NCBI RefSeq assembly: GCF_000027125.1
Contig: NC_017626.1
Source of the DNA: Escherichia coli 042
GTDB taxonomy: Bacteria; Pseudomonadota; Gammaproteobacteria; Enterobacterales; Enterobacteriaceae
Reading direction: 5' to 3' (one strand)
Length of the DNA stretch: 64,000 bases
Numbering within the stretch: position 1 is the first letter of the stretch; every line of letters begins with the position of its first letter. Shown one piece after another: positions 10,147-34,850 of this stretch. The notes under the pieces are model-generated. The model saw only the letters and a list, made by a program, of their open reading frames with translations. It ran no database searches and was not told where the DNA came from. The translations under genes and the position numbers were made by a program.

Positions 10147-12534
10147 TTATCCAATACGTGCTCGTGCGCGTTCCTGTTCACGGATCTGCGCCTGAATTTG
10201 TGTATAAAGCTGCGCCTGTTCATTATCGCGATCGGTCGCGGTCACGACCAGTGCGTAAGGCTCCTGCTCGCTGCTGAATGCTTCGCCCCAGTCTCTGTCC
10301 TGACGGGTAACAACAATAAACCATTTTTCATCCGGGTTACGCTGGCGAAAAGTCCAAATCGACGACTGTACCGTCCCGCGTTCCCGCTGTTGGGCTGATA
10401 CAACACGGTTAGTCTGGGCATCATCGGAGCGGGTTTCCGTCTCACTCTGCGTCTGGTGATTAAAACTGGCCTGCACTTCATCCAGCGAGCGGCCCTTAAC
10501 CAGCCGGAAACCGATCCGTGTGGCAGTATAATCCAGCCGGGTGGTACGCACGGCGGGTGAATATGCCAGCGTAACGCGGACTTCACGGGTTGCACGCTGC
10601 GATCGTAAAAAAGAAGCCGGGAAGGGCAGTTCAAAAAATTGGTGCGCGTTATTTTCTATCTGCTCTTCACATCGCATGACCACCACATTTTCAGAAGAAC
10701 GATATAACGCATCTTCATCAATGATGCCGTAGCCTGTCACGTCGCGCTCAATCTCCCGGTTTCTCGTTGCAGGCGCATTTCTATAGCTTTCTCTCATGGC
10801 CTGCGGAAAAGCCTGCGTCATCTCCTGAGAAACAGAAGCATGATTGACCAGCATTGCCCGCAGCATATTGGCAGACATTTCCGGGTATTCATTTAGCAGT
10901 CGACCCGCCAGATGTGTGATATACGGCGCGGCAAAGCTGGTGCCGCTGAGTTCTTTAAACAGCGTATTACCCTGAAACTGGTGATGGCAGCTTAATACGC
11001 CCAGACCGCGCATATGTGCCTGCCATTGCCCTTGCCGAACGTTGGAAGCGACATTGCCACCGTGCGCTACAACGTCAGGTTTAAACGCGCCTTTTACCGA
11101 CGGGCCGTGTCGGGTAAAAGGCGACGGTTGGTTTTCCGTTGCCGGGCTGAGATGCTGAATATCGCCAGGCCTACGCTGCGCATCCAACGTTGCGTTATGT
11201 CTGGCGACGCTGCCCACTGTCAGTACGTTCAGCGCCGGAGCCGGATCGATGATTACGCTGTCCTCATGCAACAGGTAGTCAGGATATTCATCCCGCCAGC
11301 TATTTTGCGGCACCGGAGGATCGTCGCTGCCTGCGAAATTCCCCGCAGAGACGACAAACAGTACATTATATTGCCGCGCCAGCGTATCTAACAGATACGC
11401 CATACCGCGAATATGTTTGCCGTCATAGGGCGCATTAGCATTCCCCAGCGACAGATTGAAAATGCGGCAACCGAGATCGGTAAAATACGCGACGGCGGCT
11501 GTTAGTGTGCTTTCAATCGTTTCGGCATTGAATTCAGCCCGCTCGTTCAGTACTTTCCCGTTATACAGCCATAGCTGCGGCTGCCAGAAATTGCTCTGGT
11601 TACAGGCTTCAACGTCGCCATACAGAGCAATACTCGCTACGGCGGTGCCATGCCCCTCTTGATCAAACGCATCCTGATTGGGAATAAAGCTGGCGCTTTC
11701 AGCAATGGCGGCACTTAACAGAGGGTGATTGGTGTTGATGCCGCTATCCAGAATACAGACTCTGGCCGCATTTACCGCAGGCGAAATCAGATGCTCTGGA
11801 AGTGTATTGATGTCCCGGTTAATTTGTTGATAGCTAATGCCGCTGGACGGTGGCAAATCAACCAACCTGACGTCCCGATGCGCTAACAGGTATTCTGCTT
11901 GCGCGAGCGAAACCTCTATCCGGTACATCAACAGGCTGTCCAGATTGACTTTATCCCGCCAGAGAATCCCCTGCTCTCTGAGCCAATTTTCAAAACGGGT
12001 ATACAGGTCGATACGTCTGGGGTGATGCGCCACATCGACTGGCCAGAGCTCCACATCCAGATTAAAGCGTTCCGCTACAGGAAAACCATAGCGCCGGAGT
12101 GCCCAGCTTTTACGATCTTCCGCCGACCAGCCGTCAATGCCGTCAAGCGCTTCGAGAATATTCCTGTAGGTTAGGTCCGTACGGGGAAGCCCCAGTTGCG
12201 CCAGATGGGTTTCGAAGGTTGTCAGACCCTGCTCATTAGTGAAAACGATACAGACCTGTTTACCTTCCTGACTGATGAACTCCACGCCGTGATGTATCAA
12301 TGCTGAAAAATTCATTGTGCCGCTGTAGTTCAGCTTGAGGATATAGCGCCCGTCATCGGCGCTGCCGGGTACTTGTGCCAGCGTTGGGCGCAAGGTATGG
12401 AGTTGCGTCAACAGCATTTGCCCGTGCTGGCGTAAATCGCCCCTGCGAATACGGGGCATATTGACTCTGCGGGTCCGTCGGTCGTTTTGAAGTGGTGCTT
12501 TGGTAATCGTTAGATGCTGATAATTCGCCGTCAT
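10147..12534 (-). CDS. Subtilisin-like S8 serine peptidase with ~250-aa N-terminal extension (IetS-like)
   Basis: 795 aa; catalytic D (VCILDSGIN), H (HGTAVASIA), S (GTSFAAPYITH); starts 9 nt after the ATPase stop. Confidence 0.8.
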   Translation of the reverse strand: MTANYQHLTITKAPLQNDRRTRRVNMPRIRRGDLRQHGQMLLTQLHTLRPTLAQVPGSADDGRYILKLNYSGTMNFSALIHHGVEFISQEGKQVCIVFTNEQGLTTFETHLAQLGLPRTDLTYRNILEALDGIDGWSAEDRKSWALRRYGFPVAERFNLDVELWPVDVAHHPRRIDLYTRFENWLREQGILWRDKVNLDSLLMYRIEVSLAQAEYLLAHRDVRLVDLPPSSGISYQQINRDINTLPEHLISPAVNAARVCILDSGINTNHPLLSAAIAESASFIPNQDAFDQEGHGTAVASIALYGDVEACNQSNFWQPQLWLYNGKVLNERAEFNAETIESTLTAAVAYFTDLGCRIFNLSLGNANAPYDGKHIRGMAYLLDTLARQYNVLFVVSAGNFAGSDDPPVPQNSWRDEYPDYLLHEDSVIIDPAPALNVLTVGSVARHNATLDAQRRPGDIQHLSPATENQPSPFTRHGPSVKGAFKPDVVAHGGNVASNVRQGQWQAHMRGLGVLSCHHQFQGNTLFKELSGTSFAAPYITHLAGRLLNEYPEMSANMLRAMLVNHASVSQEMTQAFPQAMRESYRNAPATRNREIERDVTGYGIIDEDALYRSSENVVVMRCEEQIENNAHQFFELPFPASFLRSQRATREVRVTLAYSPAVRTTRLDYTATRIGFRLVKGRSLDEVQASFNHQTQSETETRSDDAQTNRVVSAQQRERGTVQSSIWTFRQRNPDEKWFIVVTRQDRDWGEAFSSEQEPYALVVTATDRDNEQAQLYTQIQAQIREQERARARIG

Positions 12535-12543
12535 GGCAGTCCC

Positions 12544-13524
12544 TTATCGGTGGGTTCTGGCGTTTTCTCGCTGAGTTGCGTTTTTTAAATCTTTTAGCGT
12601 CAGGAATTCCTGATGACGCAGGATCATATGCTTGGTTGCCCGACGGACAATGCGCTCAATATCTGCACCGCTTTTCCCGAGCAGCAGGGATAATAGCTCG
12701 CTATCGTCCAGCTCAAACTGACGGCGGGTGCCGCGTAATTTTAACGCCAACAGCTCACGTAACTGCGCCTGATCCGGCAACGGAAATTCAATCACTTCAT
12801 CAAATCGACGCCAGATGGCGCTGTCCAGAATGTGTTCATGGTTAGTGGCCGCCAGAATCAGGCTTTTACCCTGATAAGCATCCATCATTTGTAAAACGGC
12901 ATTGACGACCCGGCGTAATTCACCGTGTTCGCCGCTGTCGCCACGCTCTTTTCCTATGGCATCAAACTCATCGAACAACACCACCATTGGGTGCTCTGCA
13001 ATAAAATCGAAAATTTTACGCAGATTGGCGGCGGTTTCTCCCAAAAACGAAGACACCAGTACGTCGAGGCGGACAATTGCCAGCGGCATGTCCAGTTCAA
13101 AAGCGATAACCTCTGCTGTCAGCGTTTTACCGCAGCCCGGCGGTCCGAAAAACATGATCTTACTGGCTGCTTTCATCCCGTAGCTATGCAATACATCGCT
13201 ACGCCGGTGCTCTTCAAGGAGTTCATCAATCACTGTAGCGCTGGTCGCCGGGAGGATCATTTCATCAAGGCTGCGCTGTGGCTGCCGGAGATCCAGCAAC
13301 GGCAGGCCCCTTTCTTTATCTATCGGTGCTTGAGGAAGCGCAGGCGAGCGCGAAGCCTGAACAAGACGATCGCCGTAAAGAATATGCTCCAGATCGTTAG
13401 CCAGAAGGTGGTGCTGTTTCTGACGTTCCTCATCAATAATGGCTTCCGAAACACGACGGAAAGTAGCGGTATCACCCGTTGCGCCCGCTTTTATTAGTTG
13501 CCTTAATATCTTACCGTTAGCCAT
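12544..13524 (-). CDS. AAA+ ATPase (IetA-like)
   Basis: Walker A GPPGCGKT, Walker B VVLFDEFD, sensor region LILAATN; ATG at 13524 has an AGGAG RBS (ORF track uses an upstream GTG at 13548). Confidence 0.8.
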   Translation of the reverse strand: MANGKILRQLIKAGATGDTATFRRVSEAIIDEERQKQHHLLANDLEHILYGDRLVQASRSPALPQAPIDKERGLPLLDLRQPQRSLDEMILPATSATVIDELLEEHRRSDVLHSYGMKAASKIMFFGPPGCGKTLTAEVIAFELDMPLAIVRLDVLVSSFLGETAANLRKIFDFIAEHPMVVLFDEFDAIGKERGDSGEHGELRRVVNAVLQMMDAYQGKSLILAATNHEHILDSAIWRRFDEVIEFPLPDQAQLRELLALKLRGTRRQFELDDSELLSLLLGKSGADIERIVRRATKHMILRHQEFLTLKDLKNATQRENARTHR

Positions 13525-13549
13525 TATTGACTCCTGAAACCACAGCACT

Positions 13550-16416
13550 TCATGCGGAAGGTGAACTCAACGTCCAGCTCACCGCGAATAATTGACGGGA
13601 CGTTATTTCCGTCGCCAGCTTTTGCTCGACCTCTTCCAGCAGACGGTCCTCTTCCTGCTCGATTTTTTTCTTTTCATCATGATACTGCAACATGATGCTA
13701 TCCCGCTCGCGTTCCAGCACCTTTAATGCGCGCTTGGCTTCCATTTTCTCTTTTAGAGAAGGAAGCTGACGGGCGGCTTTACGCGCCTCTTTAATTTCTG
13801 CATCTAACTGTTTGATACGTAAGTCCAGCGCGATACGTCGATCTTCTGACCAGCGTTCAAGTTTTTCTACTTCTTCATTGTAATAAAGTTCGTTATCGCG
13901 TTCGACCTGTTGGATAAAAGAATGCCGTAAAACCTCACATTGTGTTGTTAACGCAGGCAGCAAAGGCTGTTCTTCGACAGATGTTATCTCTGATAATGGC
14001 AGGCGAAGCAGACGGGATACGGTTTCCTCTGCCAGCACTTCGCCATTTTCTGTAACAGCGACGGTCAATAGTTTCTCTCGCTGTTGCTCCTGATTTCCGA
14101 TGCTGACTTTTGCCAGCAACAGCTGTCCCGATTTCCCGCAGAACAGTTTAACATCGGCCAGTTGTCCGCTTCTGGGTTGGTAGATGAAATGGAGCTTCTG
14201 GCAAACTGGGGATGTGGAAAGGCTTGCCCCTTCATGCAGGGCAGCATCAATCAGTTGCTTCCCATATCCCTGGCTGGGCCGGAAGAATTCGGCATCTTTT
14301 TCATCCGCAATGGGCCAGTTGACGTCAAAATACTTTCCTCTGGAACGAAAACCCGTCTCAGAACGTTGAAAATCGCTCTCGTCGCTCAGAAACATTTCCG
14401 CCAGCAGCAACAGATTTTCCTGGTAATCGTTTAACTGCGCGAGGGTGGTTGTACGTCGGGTTTTCAGATTGCGGACCACATCAACGTCAAAATGCTCGAA
14501 TAATGAACGCCGGGTTTCATTCTCCCGATTTTCCAGTTGATCTTTGAGTTCATCCTGCAGCTGATTAAATTCCTGTTCAATTTGTTCATCGGAGCGGCAG
14601 TGCTGGTATATCTCATGAATACGTCGTTCAATATCAACACCTGATTCGATCGACCCCAGAATGTCATCGGATGCGCCAAACACCCCTTCAAAAAGCTGGA
14701 ACTTCTGGCTCAATAATTCAAACACGCGCTGATCGGCACGGTTGCCTTTATTAATAAAATTAACCACCACGACATCGTGTTTTTGTCCATAGCGGTGAAC
14801 ACGCCCGATACGTTGCTCCACGCGCTGCGGATTCCACGGTAAATCATAATTGATTAACAGCGAACAAAACTGGAGGTTGATACCTTCTGCGCCCGCTTCA
14901 GTACAAATCATCAGGGTGCCTTCGTCCCTGAATTTTTCAACCAGCGCTGCCTTCATATCCGCCGTACTCGAACCGGAAACCCGGCCAGAGTTCTGATGTT
15001 TCTCCAGCCAGTCGCTGTAAATCTTCTTCGACACCGCATCGCTATTGCTGCCATTGAGCAGAACCACTTCTCCCTCGTAGCCACTTTCTGACAACAGTTG
15101 CGCCAGCCAGGTCTGGGTGCGTACGGACTCGGTAAAAATGACCGCCTTACGTAATCCGCCCAGTTCAGCCGTAAAGGTAAAGGCCCGATCGAGAACGCGT
15201 AACAGTGCTTCGGCCTTGGCGTTTTTGGTAATCGATGCCGCTAAAGTCTTATAATTTTTTAACTGGTCAATTTCGGCCTGTAGCGCCTGAGGATCGATGG
15301 TATCTTCGTCATCAATGCCTTCTTCATCGCTGTAATCGTCGTAATTTTCATAATCCGTCAGCGCATCCAGCACCGGCATTTTACTTTCAAGACGGTGGAT
15401 CATCGTTTCCAGCGTTCCCTGGATCGCTGTAGACGATGAGGCCAGAATTTTACGAATGACTAACGTTACTAGGTGACGCGCGCCGCTTTTGATCGCCAGT
15501 AGATCGTCCCGCTGCAAATAAGAGGAAACCTGTTTATAGAGCACTTCTTCGTCTTCCGTCGGACGAAAGTCTTCGGTTATTGAATGGCGTCGGGTAAAAC
15601 TGATCCCGCCTTCCTGCTGAACCTGTCGACGAAGCGTTCGATTACAGATTTTATTCAGACGAACCCTTAATAATGCCAGTTCTGCATCGTCAATATTCTG
15701 TCGGGAATAACGGGCCTTGAACGAAGCAAGGTCGCCGAAAAAATGAGGATCAATCACGGAAATCAGGCCGTAAAGCTCAAGAATACTGTTTTGTAGCGGC
15801 GTGGCGGAAAGCAGTATTTTTTTTCTGCCGGACAGTGCGCCACTGAGTTTTTTGGCTGTTTTAGCGCCATCGTTCTTGTAGATATTACGCAGTTTATGCG
15901 CCTCATCCATGACGACCAGATCCCACGGGATTCGTGCCAGCTCGTGCTCTTTACGGGCAGCGAATTCGTATGAACAAATGCAGATCGCCGCTTTCCCGGT
16001 TGCATTTTCAATATCAAAGGGATTATCGCTCCCCTCTTTAACCATTTGATTGAAGATCTTCGCTTCAATAATTTGTGAAGGCAGCGAAAATTTCTCTTCC
16101 AGCTCCTGGCTCCACTGCTTGCGTAGCGTTGCGGGTGCAATCAGCAACAGTTTTCGGCGGCGTTCAGCCCATTTTGCGCCAAAATCAGGCTGGCCTCAAT
16201 AGTTTTCCCCAGTCCCACTTCATCGGCCAGGATCACGCCATTCGACAGGGGAGATGCCAGCGCAAACATCGCAGCCTCTACCTGATGAGGATTCATATCA
16301 ACCCGTGCGCTGGCAATAGTTTGCGTCAGCGAGTCCTCGGCTTTGCCGCTTAACGTCAACCAGTGGGCCAGATAACTACGTTGGTGATCTGAATACATTT
16401 TCATACCTTTGTGCAA
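13550..16416 (-). pseudogene. SNF2-family helicase with ~450-aa coiled-coil-rich C-terminal extension, frameshifted near the N-terminus in this sequence
   Basis: Motif I ILADEVGLGKTIEA in the 16141..16416 piece; motif II VMDEAHKLRN and LLSATPLQN in the 13550..16147 piece. One extra nucleotide in the A4 or T4 run at plus 16172-16184 restores a continuous ~955-aa frame (...LILAQKWAERRRKLLLIAPATLRKQW...). Confidence 0.75.
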
Positions 16417-16698
16417 AGAGGGGGAGGGGAGCGCGACCGTATTTTACTGATATATGAACCGGGTTGCTAATCTGGAAGATGGCTCGCATTACATCCCCTT
16501 GTCGTTCACCGGGCTTCGCGGTCTCTTTTCCTCGCGTCTGCAAAATCAGGCGCCGGGCTTGACCTCCTGAACACTCCTTAGTGACGACACAATGGCGCGC
16601 TCGCGCCTTTTTTGTGCCGGTGCTCGGCTACACCTCAATGGCGGACCGGGCGGGGGCGTCGCAAGGCGCGCTGGATGGACTGTTCTGAGGAGGCAGGA

Positions 16699-17402
16699 AT
16701 GAGACGATTACCGCTGATGGTGGGCGTGATAGTGGGCGTAATGCTGGCTGTCGGCTGCCATGACCGTAGGGCTGGTGTGAGGACGCTGCTGGGCGATGGC
16801 GTGGAGCAATGGGGGCAGAAGTTGCCTTACGACCACTGGGAATTCAATTTTTTTACCCGAAAAATCTGCCGGCACTGGTGACAATGGTGTATCTGGAGGA
16901 CGGGGATATCCGGGAGAGCTTTTTCCGGCGACTGGATCCGACTGAACCCAGTCAGAGCAGTGTGGGAAAATGGAGCCAGCACGTAGGCGGTTTTTTAGCC
17001 AGTTTTAATATTGGCAAGGCGCTGCCTGTCAGGATGACGGTATGCTGGGACTCAGTTATCGATAAAAAGGCGTATGAGACGGAGATCTGGTTCAGCCGGG
17101 ATACGTGGCAGCAGATGCTGACTGCCTATCCTGATACTTATCGTCCGGGAAAAATATATTACCGAAACAAAATGATTATTGGCCTGCCCCCCGGTGGTAA
17201 AGTCAGGGTATGGTTAAAAGACAATCGTAATCCTGTTGTACTCCAGAATCCTGCCCGACAGTTCACCCTGACGGGAGATGATATGCTGATATGCAAAAAT
17301 GTTCCCAACAAGATTGATTTCAGTTACATCAAGGCTAACGGTTACGATCCATTTATCCGCGATTTTATCAAGGAAAAGCCCTATCCGTATGGTCACTGGT
17401 AG
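16699..17402 (+). pseudogene. Putative lipoprotein, frameshifted at a T7 homopolymer
   Basis: N-terminus MRRLPLMVGVIVGVMLAVGC (lipobox LAVGC); the two overlapping ORF-track frames (16612..16881, 16809..17402) join if the T7 run at 16848-16854 is T8 (...HWEFNFFYPKNLPALV...). Confidence 0.5.
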
Positions 17403-17429
17403 GGCGCAACGATCAGCAAAATTAAAATG

Positions 17430-17800
17430 ATCTTCTTGAGATCCTTTTAAGCTGCGCGTAATCTTCGGCTTGTAAACGGAAAAAGCCGCCTTGCGGCGGC
17501 TTTTTCCGTCCGATTAGAAGTCTTCGACCTCTTCTAATCGACTGTGGTAACTGGCTTGATGGAGCACAGATACCAAATGCTGTCCTTCCAGTGTAGCCGC
17601 TATAAGGCTTCAACTTCAAGAGTTCTGCGTATCTAAATCCACTATCCAGTTACCAATGGCTGCTGCCAGTGGCGTTAAGTCGTGTCTTACCGGGTTGGAC
17701 TCAAGACGATAGTTACCGGATAAGGCGCAGCGGTCGGGCTGAACGGGGGGGCGTGCACACAGCCCAGCCTAGAGGACTCGACTTATTTAATTGTGTAAAC
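17430..17800 (+). other. ColE1/pMB1-type plasmid replication-control region (RNAII 5' region / RNAI), truncated remnant
   Basis: Near-identity to the pBR322/pUC ori region as I recall it, e.g. GTCGTGTCTTACCGGGTTGGACTCAAGACGATAGTTACCGGATAAGGCGCAGCGGTCGGGCTGAACGGGGGG and CAGATACCAAAT..GTCCTTC..AGTGTAGCC; homology stops near 17795, before where the origin proper would lie. Confidence 0.7.
17476..17583 (-). ncRNA. RNAI-like antisense RNA of the ColE1-type remnant
   Basis: Minus strand from ACAGCATTTGGTATCTG... through a strong hairpin AAAAGCCGCC-GCAA-GGCGGCTTTT, matching the position and orientation of RNAI in ColE1 replicons; expression not assessable. Confidence 0.4.
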
Positions 17801-18271: not shown

Positions 18272-18649
18272 TTATTGATAGTGTTTTATGTTCAGATAAT
18301 GCCCGATGACTTTGTCATGCAGCTCCACCGATTTTGAGAACGACAGCGACTTCCGTCCCAGCCGTGCCAGGTGCTGCCTCAGATTCAGGTTATGCCGCTC
18401 AATTCGCTGCGTATATCGCTTGCTGATTACGTGCAGCTTTCCCTTCAGGCGGGATTCATACAGCGGCCAGTCATCCGTCATCCATATCACCACGTCAAAG
18501 GGTGACAGCAGGCTCATAAGACGCCCCAGCGTCGCCATAGTGCGTTCACCGAATACGTGCGCAACAACCGTCTTCCGGAGCCTGTCATACGCGTAAAACA
18601 GCCAGCGCTGGCGCGATTTAGCCCCGACATAGCCCCACTGTTCGTCCAT
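18272..18649 (-). CDS. insB: IS1 InsB
   Basis: [48 protein letters not shown]... Confidence 0.9.
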
Positions 18650-18693
18650 TTCCGCGCAGACGATGACGTCACTGCCCGGCTGTATGCGCGAGG

Positions 18694-18969
18694 TTACCGA
18701 CTGCGGCCTGAGTTTTTTAAGTGACGTAAAATCGTGTTGAGGCCAACGCCCATAATGCGGGCAGTTGCCCGGCAGCCAACGCCATTCATGGCCATATCAA
18801 TGATTTTCTGGTGCGTACCGGGTTGAGAAGCGGTGTAAGTGAACTGCAGTTGCCATGTTTTACGGCAGTGAGAGCAGAGATAGCGCTGATGTCCGGCGGT
18901 GCTTTTGCCGTTACGCACCACCCCGTCAGTAGCTGAACAGGAGGGACAGCTGATAGAAACAGAAGCCAC
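18694..18969 (-). CDS. insA: IS1 InsA
   Basis: [43 protein letters not shown]... Confidence 0.9.
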
Positions 18970-19381: not shown

Positions 19382-20644
19382 TTATTTTAATGGGTTATTA
19401 ATCTTTGCATATTCAAATGGACTGATAAATTTTTCTCTGTTTGCATCCAGAAAATCGGCCCACCACTGTAGCATCAGTCGCCGTTCTTCCAGATGTTCTG
19501 CTTTATGAATGTAAGCAGCACGTACACCGTTACGTTCCTGATGGCTCATCTGACGTTCCACAGCATCGCGGGACCACAAACCTGATTCAATCAATGCACT
19601 GCACGCCATCGCCCGGAATCCATGGCCACAGACTTCCTGGGTTGTGTCATACCCCATCACCCTCAGGGCTTTATTTACAGTATTTTCACTGATTGGTTTA
19701 CGCGGGTCATGTGCACCCGTAAATATCAGACCATTTTCACCTGCCCATGTCTGAAGTTCTGTCAGTATGGCTACAGCCTGTTTACTGAGTGGCACAAGAT
19801 GTGGTGTCCGCATCTTGGAGCCCCGGTGTGAGAATTTTACGCCAGGCAGAGGTTCGCGTTCGGCTGGAATAGTCCACATGGCATTGTCAATATCAATTTC
19901 AGACCAGCGGGCATATCTGAGTTCACTGGAACGAATAAAAACCAGTAAATTCAGCATAACGGCAAGCCGGGTGACAGGCTGGCCTTTATAACCGTCAATA
20001 CGCGACAGAAGTTCAGGCAGGCGTGAAAGATTCAGAGCGGGGCGATGCTGGCGTTTTACCGTGGTCAATGCACCAGCCATATCCAGAGCCGGGTTATATC
20101 TGATGATGCCAGACTGTACGGCGTAACGCATTACAGCAGATATTCTTTGCTGCAGACGACTGGCGATTTCATAAATTTGTTTTGCTTCTGCAGCACGAAC
20201 AGGGATAAGCAGGTCCGGGGTATTGAGTGTTGTGATATCCCGGTTGCCGATAAAGGGGAAAACGTGTGTCTCGAGGCTTTTGAGTACTTTATCGCTGTGT
20301 GATTGTGCCCATTGTTTATTACTGGCATGCCAGCGTCGTGCAATATGTTCAAAAGAGAGCTGTAAATCAGGGACTACTTTTTTAACTCTTTTCTGTTCGC
20401 AAGGGTCAATCCCCTCTGAAATCAGTTTTCGGGCCTCATCCCGTTTTGTACGAGCTTCGGAGAGAGAAACTTCTGGATACACACCAAGTGCCAGAGTCTT
20501 CTCCTTACCCAGAATACGATAACGGAGACGCCAGTAACGGGAACCATTAGGATGTACCAGCAGGAACATGCCAGCCCCGTCAGTGAGTTTATAAGCCTTG
20601 TCAGTAGGCTTTGCTGCCCGGATTTTTGCGTCAGTCAGTGCCAT
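19382..20644 (-). CDS. int: P4-family tyrosine integrase
   Basis: 420 aa, MALTDAKIRAAKPTDKAYKLTDGAGMFLLVHPNGSRYWRLRYR...; C-terminal catalytic region HGFRAMA...RAAYIH; located ~200 bp from the 3' end of tRNA-Phe. Confidence 0.9.
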   Translation of the reverse strand: MALTDAKIRAAKPTDKAYKLTDGAGMFLLVHPNGSRYWRLRYRILGKEKTLALGVYPEVSLSEARTKRDEARKLISEGIDPCEQKRVKKVVPDLQLSFEHIARRWHASNKQWAQSHSDKVLKSLETHVFPFIGNRDITTLNTPDLLIPVRAAEAKQIYEIASRLQQRISAVMRYAVQSGIIRYNPALDMAGALTTVKRQHRPALNLSRLPELLSRIDGYKGQPVTRLAVMLNLLVFIRSSELRYARWSEIDIDNAMWTIPAEREPLPGVKFSHRGSKMRTPHLVPLSKQAVAILTELQTWAGENGLIFTGAHDPRKPISENTVNKALRVMGYDTTQEVCGHGFRAMACSALIESGLWSRDAVERQMSHQERNGVRAAYIHKAEHLEERRLMLQWWADFLDANREKFISPFEYAKINNPLK

Positions 20645-20841: not shown

Positions 20842-20917
20842 TGGTGCCCGGACTCGGAATCGAACCAAGGACACGGGGATTTTCAATCCCCTGCTCTACC
20901 GACTGAGCTATCCGGGC
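20842..20917 (-). tRNA. pheU: tRNA-Phe (GAA)
   Basis: Exact 76-nt tRNA-Phe as reverse complement (GCCCGGATAGCTCAGTCGGTAGAGCAGGGGATTGAAAATCCCCGTGTCCTTGGTTCGATTCCGAGTCCGGGCACCA); followed by yjdC-dsbD-cutA as at K-12 pheU. Confidence 0.95.
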
Positions 20918-34676: not shown

Positions 34677-34850
34677 GCAATAACGGTACGACAGTTATGT
34701 CGTGCCGTTTGTTTTTTTGCGATAGTCACAAAGGTAATAGTTGAAATTCCCCTGCCACCTGGCAAAATATCCGTTCAACCATCAGCTTTGCAGGACGACC
34801 TGCAAACGCCTCTTTTCACCGGGGACGGCCCCAATTCTCCGGAGCCTGAT

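Follow-up and report, generated by a model that had tools for sequence, protein, structure and literature searches.

Tli1 of enteroaggregative Escherichia coli (EAEC) is an outer-membrane lipoprotein that binds Tle1 at a 1:1 ratio and blocks its phospholipase activity, as summarized in the section of PMC6730261 that cites Flaugnatti 2016. IsrK, a small RNA of Salmonella Gifsy-1, ends at a Rho-independent terminator, part of its transcripts reading through to orf45-anrP, and P4 seqA has been named a structural homolog of IsrK, with CI RNA as its antisense partner (PMC4825925). Relatives of both systems abut in the stretch of DNA analyzed here, which we call the window: 64 kb of the chromosome of E. 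coli 042, representing an E. coli tRNA-Phe island, located at pheU in this strain and at pheV in O104:H4, 55989, and E24377A. A lipoprotein gene in this island is interrupted at a run of T and is preceded by a hairpin. We consider it highly probable that the gene is a fixed frameshift pseudogene of a plasmid-borne, orphan Tli1-type immunity gene and that the hairpin is the terminator of an isrK-like RNA. The features of the locus are as follows, with the basis of each assignment in brackets.

16441 to 16470, minus strand: promoter-like site for the operon of the SNF2/DrmD-like gene (consensus scan, 9 of 12).
16500 to 16528, plus strand: putative promoter of the isrK-like RNA (inferred from the JJ1887 alignment).
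16534 to 16613, plus strand: isrK-family small RNA, a P4 seqA-like or C4 a1b1-like leader with three hairpins (Rfam RF01394).
16633 to 16667, plus strand: the 5′ 35 nt or so of an antisense RNA of the C4/CI type; in annotations elsewhere, an "ash family protein" ORF begins here (ATG 16638) (JJ1887 alignment).
16668 to 16688, plus strand: tail of tle1, its last six codons and stop (ALDGLF-stop), forming the left end of the plasmid segment (plasmid alignments; the plasmid Tle1 ends in ...ADALDGLF).
16699 to 17402, plus strand: tli1-like DUF2931 lipoprotein gene, frameshifted (frame repair, Pfam, homolog alignment).
17403 to 17774, no strand assigned: fragment of a ColE1-type replication origin that arrived with tli1 (Rfam RF00106, plasmid matches, fold).

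The lipoprotein gene opens with an ATG at 16699, behind a Shine-Dalgarno sequence, GAGGAGG, at 16687 to 16693. Its 5′ frame encodes MRRLPLMVGVIVGVMLAVGC..., beginning with the lipoprotein signal peptide MRRLPLMVGVIVGVMLAVG-C20, in which the lipobox is LAVGC and the lipobox cysteine is Cys20. Inside the gene lies a run of seven T on the plus strand (T7, 16848 to 16854); the 5′ frame ends at a premature TGA at 16879 to 16881, and the 3′ frame is open to a TAG at 17400 to 17402. The T7 products are a 60-residue stub with the signal peptide and a 197-residue remainder without one. When the length of the tract was edited in silico, T8 or T5 gave a single 234-residue ORF, and T6, T7, and T9 gave none. 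At T8 the codons read AAT TTT TTT TAC (N-F-F-Y), and the T run is a by-product of these codons. The 64-kb window contains 21 homopolymers of seven or more bases, and the T7 tract taken alone is not beyond chance. A sequence-only reading of this DNA had placed the interrupting T7 at exactly these coordinates and had claimed that T8 would restore the frame, which agrees both with the edited 234-residue ORF and with homologs that are in frame with T8. The signal peptide with the LAVGC lipobox that it had described is present, with G19 and C20 invariant across 24 homologs. The alignment of homologs that it had proposed returned single-frame genes throughout, with T8 or an interrupted tract, and not two separate genes.

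The restored 234-residue protein matched the Pfam family DUF2931 (PF11153) over residues 43 to 232 (E = 1.6e-31, 109.9 bits against a cut-off of 22.2). Among 90 homologs, those at 45 to 50% identity carry the NCBI name [quoted passage not shown] An NCBIfam search with the restored protein gave no match, and a PDB sequence search with it found no solved structure. Homologs were located directly 3′ of PF09994 Tle1-like genes on pS19_141-f, a 6.7 kb ColE1-type plasmid comprising tle1, the DUF2931 gene, ori, and rop; on pEA5_2 of E. albertii, where tle1 was established by tblastn; and in E. kobei, Erwinia, and Brenneria. By homology and gene context, the interrupted gene is a putative DUF2931/Tli1-like immunity lipoprotein for T6SS Tle1 phospholipases.

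Positions 16668 to 17774 are 95.8% identical to the small ColE1-type tle1-tli1 plasmid pEA5_2, and all plasmid matches to the window start at 16668 and stop at about 17774. At the left end, 16668 to 16688 reads GCG CTG GAT GGA CTG TTC TGA, so that only the last 21 nt of tle1 are left, and tblastn for tle1 across the 64-kb window found none besides this remnant. The junction at 16668 carries a GCGC microhomology. Toward the right end, RNAI (Rfam RF00106, 59.9 bits) was found on the minus strand at 17476 to 17581, and a strong bidirectional hairpin lies at 17476 to 17509, within the origin fragment. Judged from the standard layout of ColE1 origins, the origin in the window would be incomplete, because plasmid homology stops at 17774, inside the origin region of the plasmid. 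Since only 21 nt of tle1 are retained and the window holds no tle1, the lipoprotein gene is predicted to be an orphan immunity gene brought by the plasmid fragment.

Upstream of this segment, the hairpin GGCGC-GCTC-GCGCC occupies 16594 to 16607 on the plus strand and is followed by T6 at 16608 to 16613. The earlier reading had reported an intrinsic-terminator-like element at 16588 to 16607; the element holds as a real plus-strand intrinsic terminator, but its start had been set 6 nt too early. A terminator pattern scan of the window gave three sites compared with 1.7 ± 1.2 in shuffles, and the fold of the hairpin alone gave z = −1.4. We take the hairpin as real because it forms the third stem of a full-length isrK match and because relatives show compensatory changes. 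The RF01394 match covers model positions 1 to 77 of 77 at 56.8 bits, against a gathering threshold of 50, with E = 1.6e-9 over the whole window. A match to RF03163 (c4-a1b1) at 16521 to 16573, which scored 37.5 bits, below its gathering threshold, overlaps the first two isrK hairpins. Six sequences were compared at the terminator, and the stems read GGCGC/GCGCC in the window, GACGC/GCGTC in JJ1887 and ST2747, and ACCGC/GCGGT in Hafnia phage yong2. The hairpin is thus identified, from covariance and alignment, as the predicted Rho-independent terminator of an isrK-like RNA. The candidate promoter of this RNA has a −35 element TTGTCG, a 17 nt spacer, and a weak −10 element TCTCTT, with a start near 16534; JJ1887 has TTGCCG and TATCTT at these positions. 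The isrK-like RNA of the window would then be a transcript from a weak promoter.

About 900 E. coli genomes contain sequences 70 to 82% identical to positions 16516 to 16665, under the annotation "ash family protein." Among the intact relatives that we examined, isrK scored 61 to 81 bits (where at or above gathering) and was followed about 22 nt later by C4 (RF01695) at 62 to 85 bits, then by a hypothetical protein of about 155 residues, an HTH protein, and an integrase; the other flank holds varying cargo, namely type I R-M, a reverse transcriptase, or Rhs. The homologous site of JJ1887 scored 71.8 bits for C4, and a C4 covariance search of the window gave no match, the plasmid junction at 16668 having severed the C4/CI part here, of which about 35 nt are left. 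When phages were searched with the isrK region, Hafnia phage yong2 was the single match. This search did not retrieve P4 itself by DNA similarity, so that the link to P4 is drawn from PMC4825925 and the covariance models.

The defense cluster on the other side comprises a DrmD-like SNF2 gene, IetA, IetS, and type III Mod and Res. Its orientation is divergent, as had been claimed: the SNF2 gene lies on the minus strand with its ATG at 16398, the start that RefSeq annotates at the identical O104:H4 locus. The promoter-like site at 16441 to 16470 has a −35 element TTAGCA, an 18 nt spacer, and a −10 element TAAAAT on the minus strand and is clear of the hairpin; the promoter pattern scan alone was not above shuffles. 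Because the site lies between the SNF2 start codon and the hairpin, a transcript from it would not contain the hairpin. A placement of the hairpin in the 5′ UTR of the defense operon was rejected both for this position of the site and since the hairpin region is conserved beside unrelated cargo. The regulatory region shared with the defense operon, in which the sequence-only reading had set the hairpin, accordingly gives way to a separate isrK/C4-type module that stands beside varied cargo in about 900 genomes. Homology to other islands begins only at about 16495, and the isrK/C4-type module spans 16495 to 16667; the intergenic region is therefore three abutting modules, the cargo promoter, the isrK/C4 remnant, and the plasmid fragment, and not one shared region. 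The hairpin precedes the lipoprotein gene only because the plasmid fragment joined at 16668. The tli1 gene has no evident promoter of its own because it is cotranscribed with tle1 on the plasmids, and here any expression of it would require transcripts that run past the isrK-like terminator.

The DUF2931 gene is carried by 74 of 5426 complete E. coli genomes. Chromosomal copies number about 68; at least 55 of them (about 60) have T7, just two are intact, and the lesions among them are of no fewer than four or five kinds. The copies are given below with the state of the tract and any other lesion.

Plasmid-type alleles beside tle1 (6 to 7 copies, 87.5% identity): T8; no lesions, intact where checked.
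CFSAN004176 and A24 (the two intact chromosomal copies): T8; no lesions.
TW10573: T8; 3′ truncation at about 17275.
CE0007a and CE0026a: T8; TGC to TGA at the lipobox Cys20.
UMNK88 and ETEC1749: tract absent; 5′ truncation at 16895, the defense operon also being missing in UMNK88.
M217 group (about 14 genomes): T7; 12-bp deletion in the signal peptide and the same 3′ truncation as in TW10573.
Remaining listed copies, including about 15 O104:H4/55989 assemblies, E24377A, and ETEC strains: T7; no other lesions.

In the protein collection from public assemblies, T7 fragments occur on 1000 or more contigs, and 67 contigs encode the exact T8 protein, figures to be read against the strong skew of public genomes toward O104:H4 and ETEC clones. 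Only lengths of 7 and 8 were met among the copies. Every one of the approximately 15 assemblies of the O104:H4/55989 lineage has T7, and T8 was found only on haplotypes other than the O104:H4/55989 type. The closest full-length matches to the window are TW10690 and TW10722, at 99.8%.

Within the gene, the extra T is the sole difference of CFSAN004176 and A24 from the T7 allele. Over 6.6 kb, the O104:H4-type T7 haplotype differs from all others at three sites, and the T8 group of CFSAN004176, A24, and the CE strains has seven further differing sites. M217 (T7) and TW10573 (T8) have alleles in common and an identical truncation junction; past this junction they are only 92.7% identical, and the locus is therefore mosaic. 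T7 and T8 each occur on a full-length background (for T7, the O104:H4 group) and on a 3′-truncated one (for T7, the M217 group), so there were at least two changes of the tract, or recombination moved it. The T tract is therefore mutable, as is any 8-nt homopolymer. T8 is present in all plasmid alleles next to tle1 and in E. kobei, and by this distribution it is the ancestral, in-frame state. Synonymous codons break the tract in Erwinia (TTT TTC) and Brenneria (TTC TTT), Edwardsiella has an in-frame T7 with His replacing Tyr, and the Tli1-EAEC clade has L-F-I-Y at this position. Given the interrupted tracts in other genera, the tract is therefore not preserved at the DNA level.

We propose the following history. 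A small ColE1-type plasmid with the T6SS pair tle1-tli1 would have been the source of 16668 to 17774. Illegitimate recombination at the GCGC microhomology may have put a piece of this plasmid into the isrK/C4 module of the tRNA-Phe island, at a place where the module adjoined the defense cluster (DrmD-like SNF2, IetA/IetS, type III R-M). With only the final 21 nt of tle1 captured, the Tli1-type immunity gene, whose native role would be that of an outer-membrane lipoprotein binding and inhibiting the Tle1 phospholipase A1 in the periplasm, would have been orphaned; the same junction would have severed the downstream partner of the isrK-like RNA, the C4/CI-type antisense RNA. Selection on tli1 would have relaxed because no toxin was linked to it. 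Replication slippage may then have cut the T8 of the N-F-F-Y codons to T7. This allele would give no working immunity protein, because its products are a stub with the signal peptide and a remainder without one, and it would have been stably inherited since.

Decay fits the T tract better than an on/off switch does. One alternative is recoding of the T7 allele, in which a −1 ribosomal frameshift or transcriptional slippage would yield some full-length Tli1-like lipoprotein. The 0 frame, AAT TTT TTT ACC, contains an X_XXY_YYZ heptamer, U_UUU_UUU, and a −1 slip, or an extra U from RNA polymerase, would recreate the N-F-F-Y-P of the T8 alleles. RNA polymerase is known to slip on runs of U or A, as in Shigella mxiE, which counts in favor of recoding, although a seven-base run is near the lower limit for slippage. 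We searched for a frameshift-stimulating structure 3′ of the tract and found none, with fold z-scores of 0.05 for 16855 to 16920 and −0.99 for 16855 to 16980, and the lack of such a structure downstream counts against recoding. The two-frame layout, moreover, is derived and not conserved, the homologs all being in frame, and the other lesions in sister copies speak for a dispensable protein. On balance we regard recoding as very unlikely.

The sequence-only reading had raised the possibility of an on/off switch; for the gene as identified here, slipped-strand mispairing would toggle T7 and T8 and turn the orphan immunity lipoprotein on and off in subpopulations. The population data offer this idea some footing: both lengths occur on nearly identical sequence, CFSAN004176 and A24 being the T7 allele plus one T; each length occurs on two structural backgrounds, which calls for at least two events or for recombination; and the exact T8 protein, on its 67 contigs, is not rare. 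The same data do not show toggling, however, for the approximately 15 independent O104:H4/55989 assemblies all have T7 and only two lengths exist. A tract of 7 to 8 T is short for efficient switching in mismatch-repair-proficient E. coli, and this window alone has 21 runs of seven or more bases. The tract is not kept as DNA in Erwinia or Brenneria, T8 is ancestral, and T7 is fixed, being carried by every O104:H4/55989 assembly (approximately 15) and by 55 or more complete genomes; tle1, moreover, is gone. Unrelated lesions have struck the sister copies, among them a nonsense change, a deletion of 12 bp, and truncation at either the 5′ or the 3′ end; from the nonsense change and the truncations it follows that the gene is not being maintained, and on the M217 background, where the gene was already truncated, the tract change was therefore neutral. 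The contingency loci of Neisseria, Haemophilus, and Campylobacter resemble this one in that a coding homopolymer sets the frame and two lengths occur in the population. Unlike them, the present tract is short, shows no variation within a lineage, and is not conserved as DNA, and its gene is otherwise decaying. We therefore judge phase variation to be very unlikely.

An equally improbable variant would keep the T7 allele alive through low-level −1 ribosomal or transcriptional slippage or rare T7-to-T8 reversion, giving its carriers, the O104:H4 lineage among them, an inexpensive and mostly silent immunity reserve against Tle1-armed competitors that carry the tle1-tli1 ColE1 plasmid, expressed through read-through of the isrK-like terminator. 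Finally, a homopolymer error of sequencing or assembly in an intact gene has almost no likelihood: two single-base deletions unique to the window, at 9416 (against nine relatives) and at 16172 (against 12), may be assembly errors, but T7 recurs in at least 55 complete genomes obtained by Sanger, PacBio, and hybrid methods, among them 55989, E24377A, and many O104:H4 genomes, and T7 protein fragments recur on at least 1000 contigs, so that recurrence in independent assemblies effectively refutes it.

With the frameshift pseudogene as the preferred reading, the two genes of the RefSeq annotation ("hypothetical protein" and "DUF2931 family protein") should be one frameshifted, orphan tli1 pseudogene. 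Two nearby protein calls fall on RNA genes, "ash family protein" on a C4-type RNA and "replication initiation protein" on the ColE1 RNAI/RNAII. All components of the locus are of known kinds, with nothing beyond the ordinary, and its importance beyond annotation is little. It is an example of the debris that gathers in defense islands: after the capture of a T6SS effector-immunity pair from a plasmid, the toxin gene disappeared and the immunity gene broke down along several independent routes. Should the T7 allele prove leaky or reversible, this would bear on the persistence of orphan immunity genes; nothing that we found points there.

Compared with the described systems, the isrK-like module resembles IsrK of Salmonella Gifsy-1 in its full-length model match, its three hairpins, and its final Rho-independent terminator, and also in the start of a small ORF (16638) about 105 nt from the RNA start, comparable to the first AUG of orf45 at A107 (PMC4825925). 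The C4 antisense-RNA immunity modules of P1 and P7 (CI in P4) belong to this comparison too, and in relatives a C4 RNA lies about 22 nt downstream. Unlike the IsrK and C4 modules, the window has neither a C4/CI RNA nor orf45/anrP-like genes, and its −10 element is weak.

The lipoprotein gene shares with tli1 of EAEC the DUF2931 domain, a lipoprotein signal peptide with an invariant cysteine, 45 to 50% identity, and homologs 3′ of Tle1-like genes. It differs in lying outside any T6SS cluster, in having lost tle1 but for 21 nt, in being frameshifted, and in coming from a ColE1-type plasmid fragment, and the binding of Tle1 by its product is only putative. A further parallel is with orphan T6SS immunity genes, described in Vibrio cholerae (Kirchberger 2017) and E. 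coli (Ma 2017) and reviewed in PMC6730261: like the orphans treated in that part of the review, the window gene lies away from its cognate effector, came by horizontal transfer, and closely matches the immunity member of an effector-immunity pair found elsewhere. The orphans described there lie inside T6SS clusters and are usually intact, whereas the copy in the window has a small-RNA module as its neighbor in a defense island, and almost every carrier has the gene as a pseudogene.

The frameshifted tli1-like lipoprotein gene (window 16699-17402) appears in the PGAP annotation of its RefSeq relatives (for example, L001:12300-13003, a locus of one such relative) as two separate proteins, one per half, with no pseudogene flag on either. 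One half is a 60-aa "hypothetical" protein (WP_001387040.1), and the other is labelled "DUF2931 family" (WP_001420570.1 or WP_001387039.1). Homopolymer runs of at least 7 bases show a strong strand bias across the whole window, with 16 runs of T versus 3 of A when the plus strand is read, and the minus-strand defence genes contain several in-frame runs of T7 or T8 (5176, 6076, 9178, 13663, and 15817).

The chromosome also carries an embedded ColE1-type origin fragment, which contains a full RNAI gene. RefSeq gives this fragment a CDS for a "replication initiation protein" of 48 aa, probably a spurious ORF overlying RNAII. Beyond it, an IS1 copy shared with O104:H4 and absent from UPEC69 is followed by a P4-type integrase and then tRNA-Phe. 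O104:H4, E24377A, and UMNK88 carry the same island at pheV (yqgA side); in the window, as in TW10690 and UPEC69, it lies at pheU (dicD/dsbD side). The window features are as follows:

17403-17774, ColE1-type origin fragment
17476-17581, minus strand, full RNAI gene
18272-18969, IS1 copy
19382-20644, P4-type integrase
20845-20917, tRNA-Phe

C4 antisense RNA matches (62-85 bits) coincide with CDSs labelled "ash family protein" (loci L006:7118-7206, L022:2620-2708, L023:2602-2689, and L025:2284-2967); in Hafnia phage yong2, the 227-aa Ash CDS contains both the isrK and the C4 RNA match. Either these RNAs overlap a real gene or, in E. coli, the short CDSs called "ash" are misannotated RNA genes. 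Related islands bearing the isrK/C4 module have, near their integrase end, isrC (145 bits) and EFASI (~100 bits) RNA matches (L023:609-731, L023:4474-4602, and L024:4107-4234). Elsewhere in the window, and unrelated to the tli1/isrK finding, are a guanidine-II (mini-ykkC) riboswitch match (34787-34833, 50.4 bits) and three tandem tRNA genes with identical scores (50071-50487).

According to PADLOC models, the divergently oriented defence operon (window 9300-16398, minus strand; L001:1236-11999) encodes a DrmD-like SNF2 helicase, IetA (an AAA ATPase), IetS (an S8 protease), and the Mod and Res proteins of a type III R-M system. Two of its genes carry single-base deletions in the window. At 16172, a T5 run is reduced to T4, a change absent from all 12 relatives compared, which splits the SNF2/DrmD-like gene into ORFs 16141-16416 and 13550-16147; at 9416, within the type III methyltransferase gene, CC has become C, a deletion found in none of the nine relatives compared. 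These deletions are either assembly errors or a sign that the operon is inactivated in this strain. The described Ietas system consists of two genes, and the SNF2 gene found here upstream of IetAS falls outside it.
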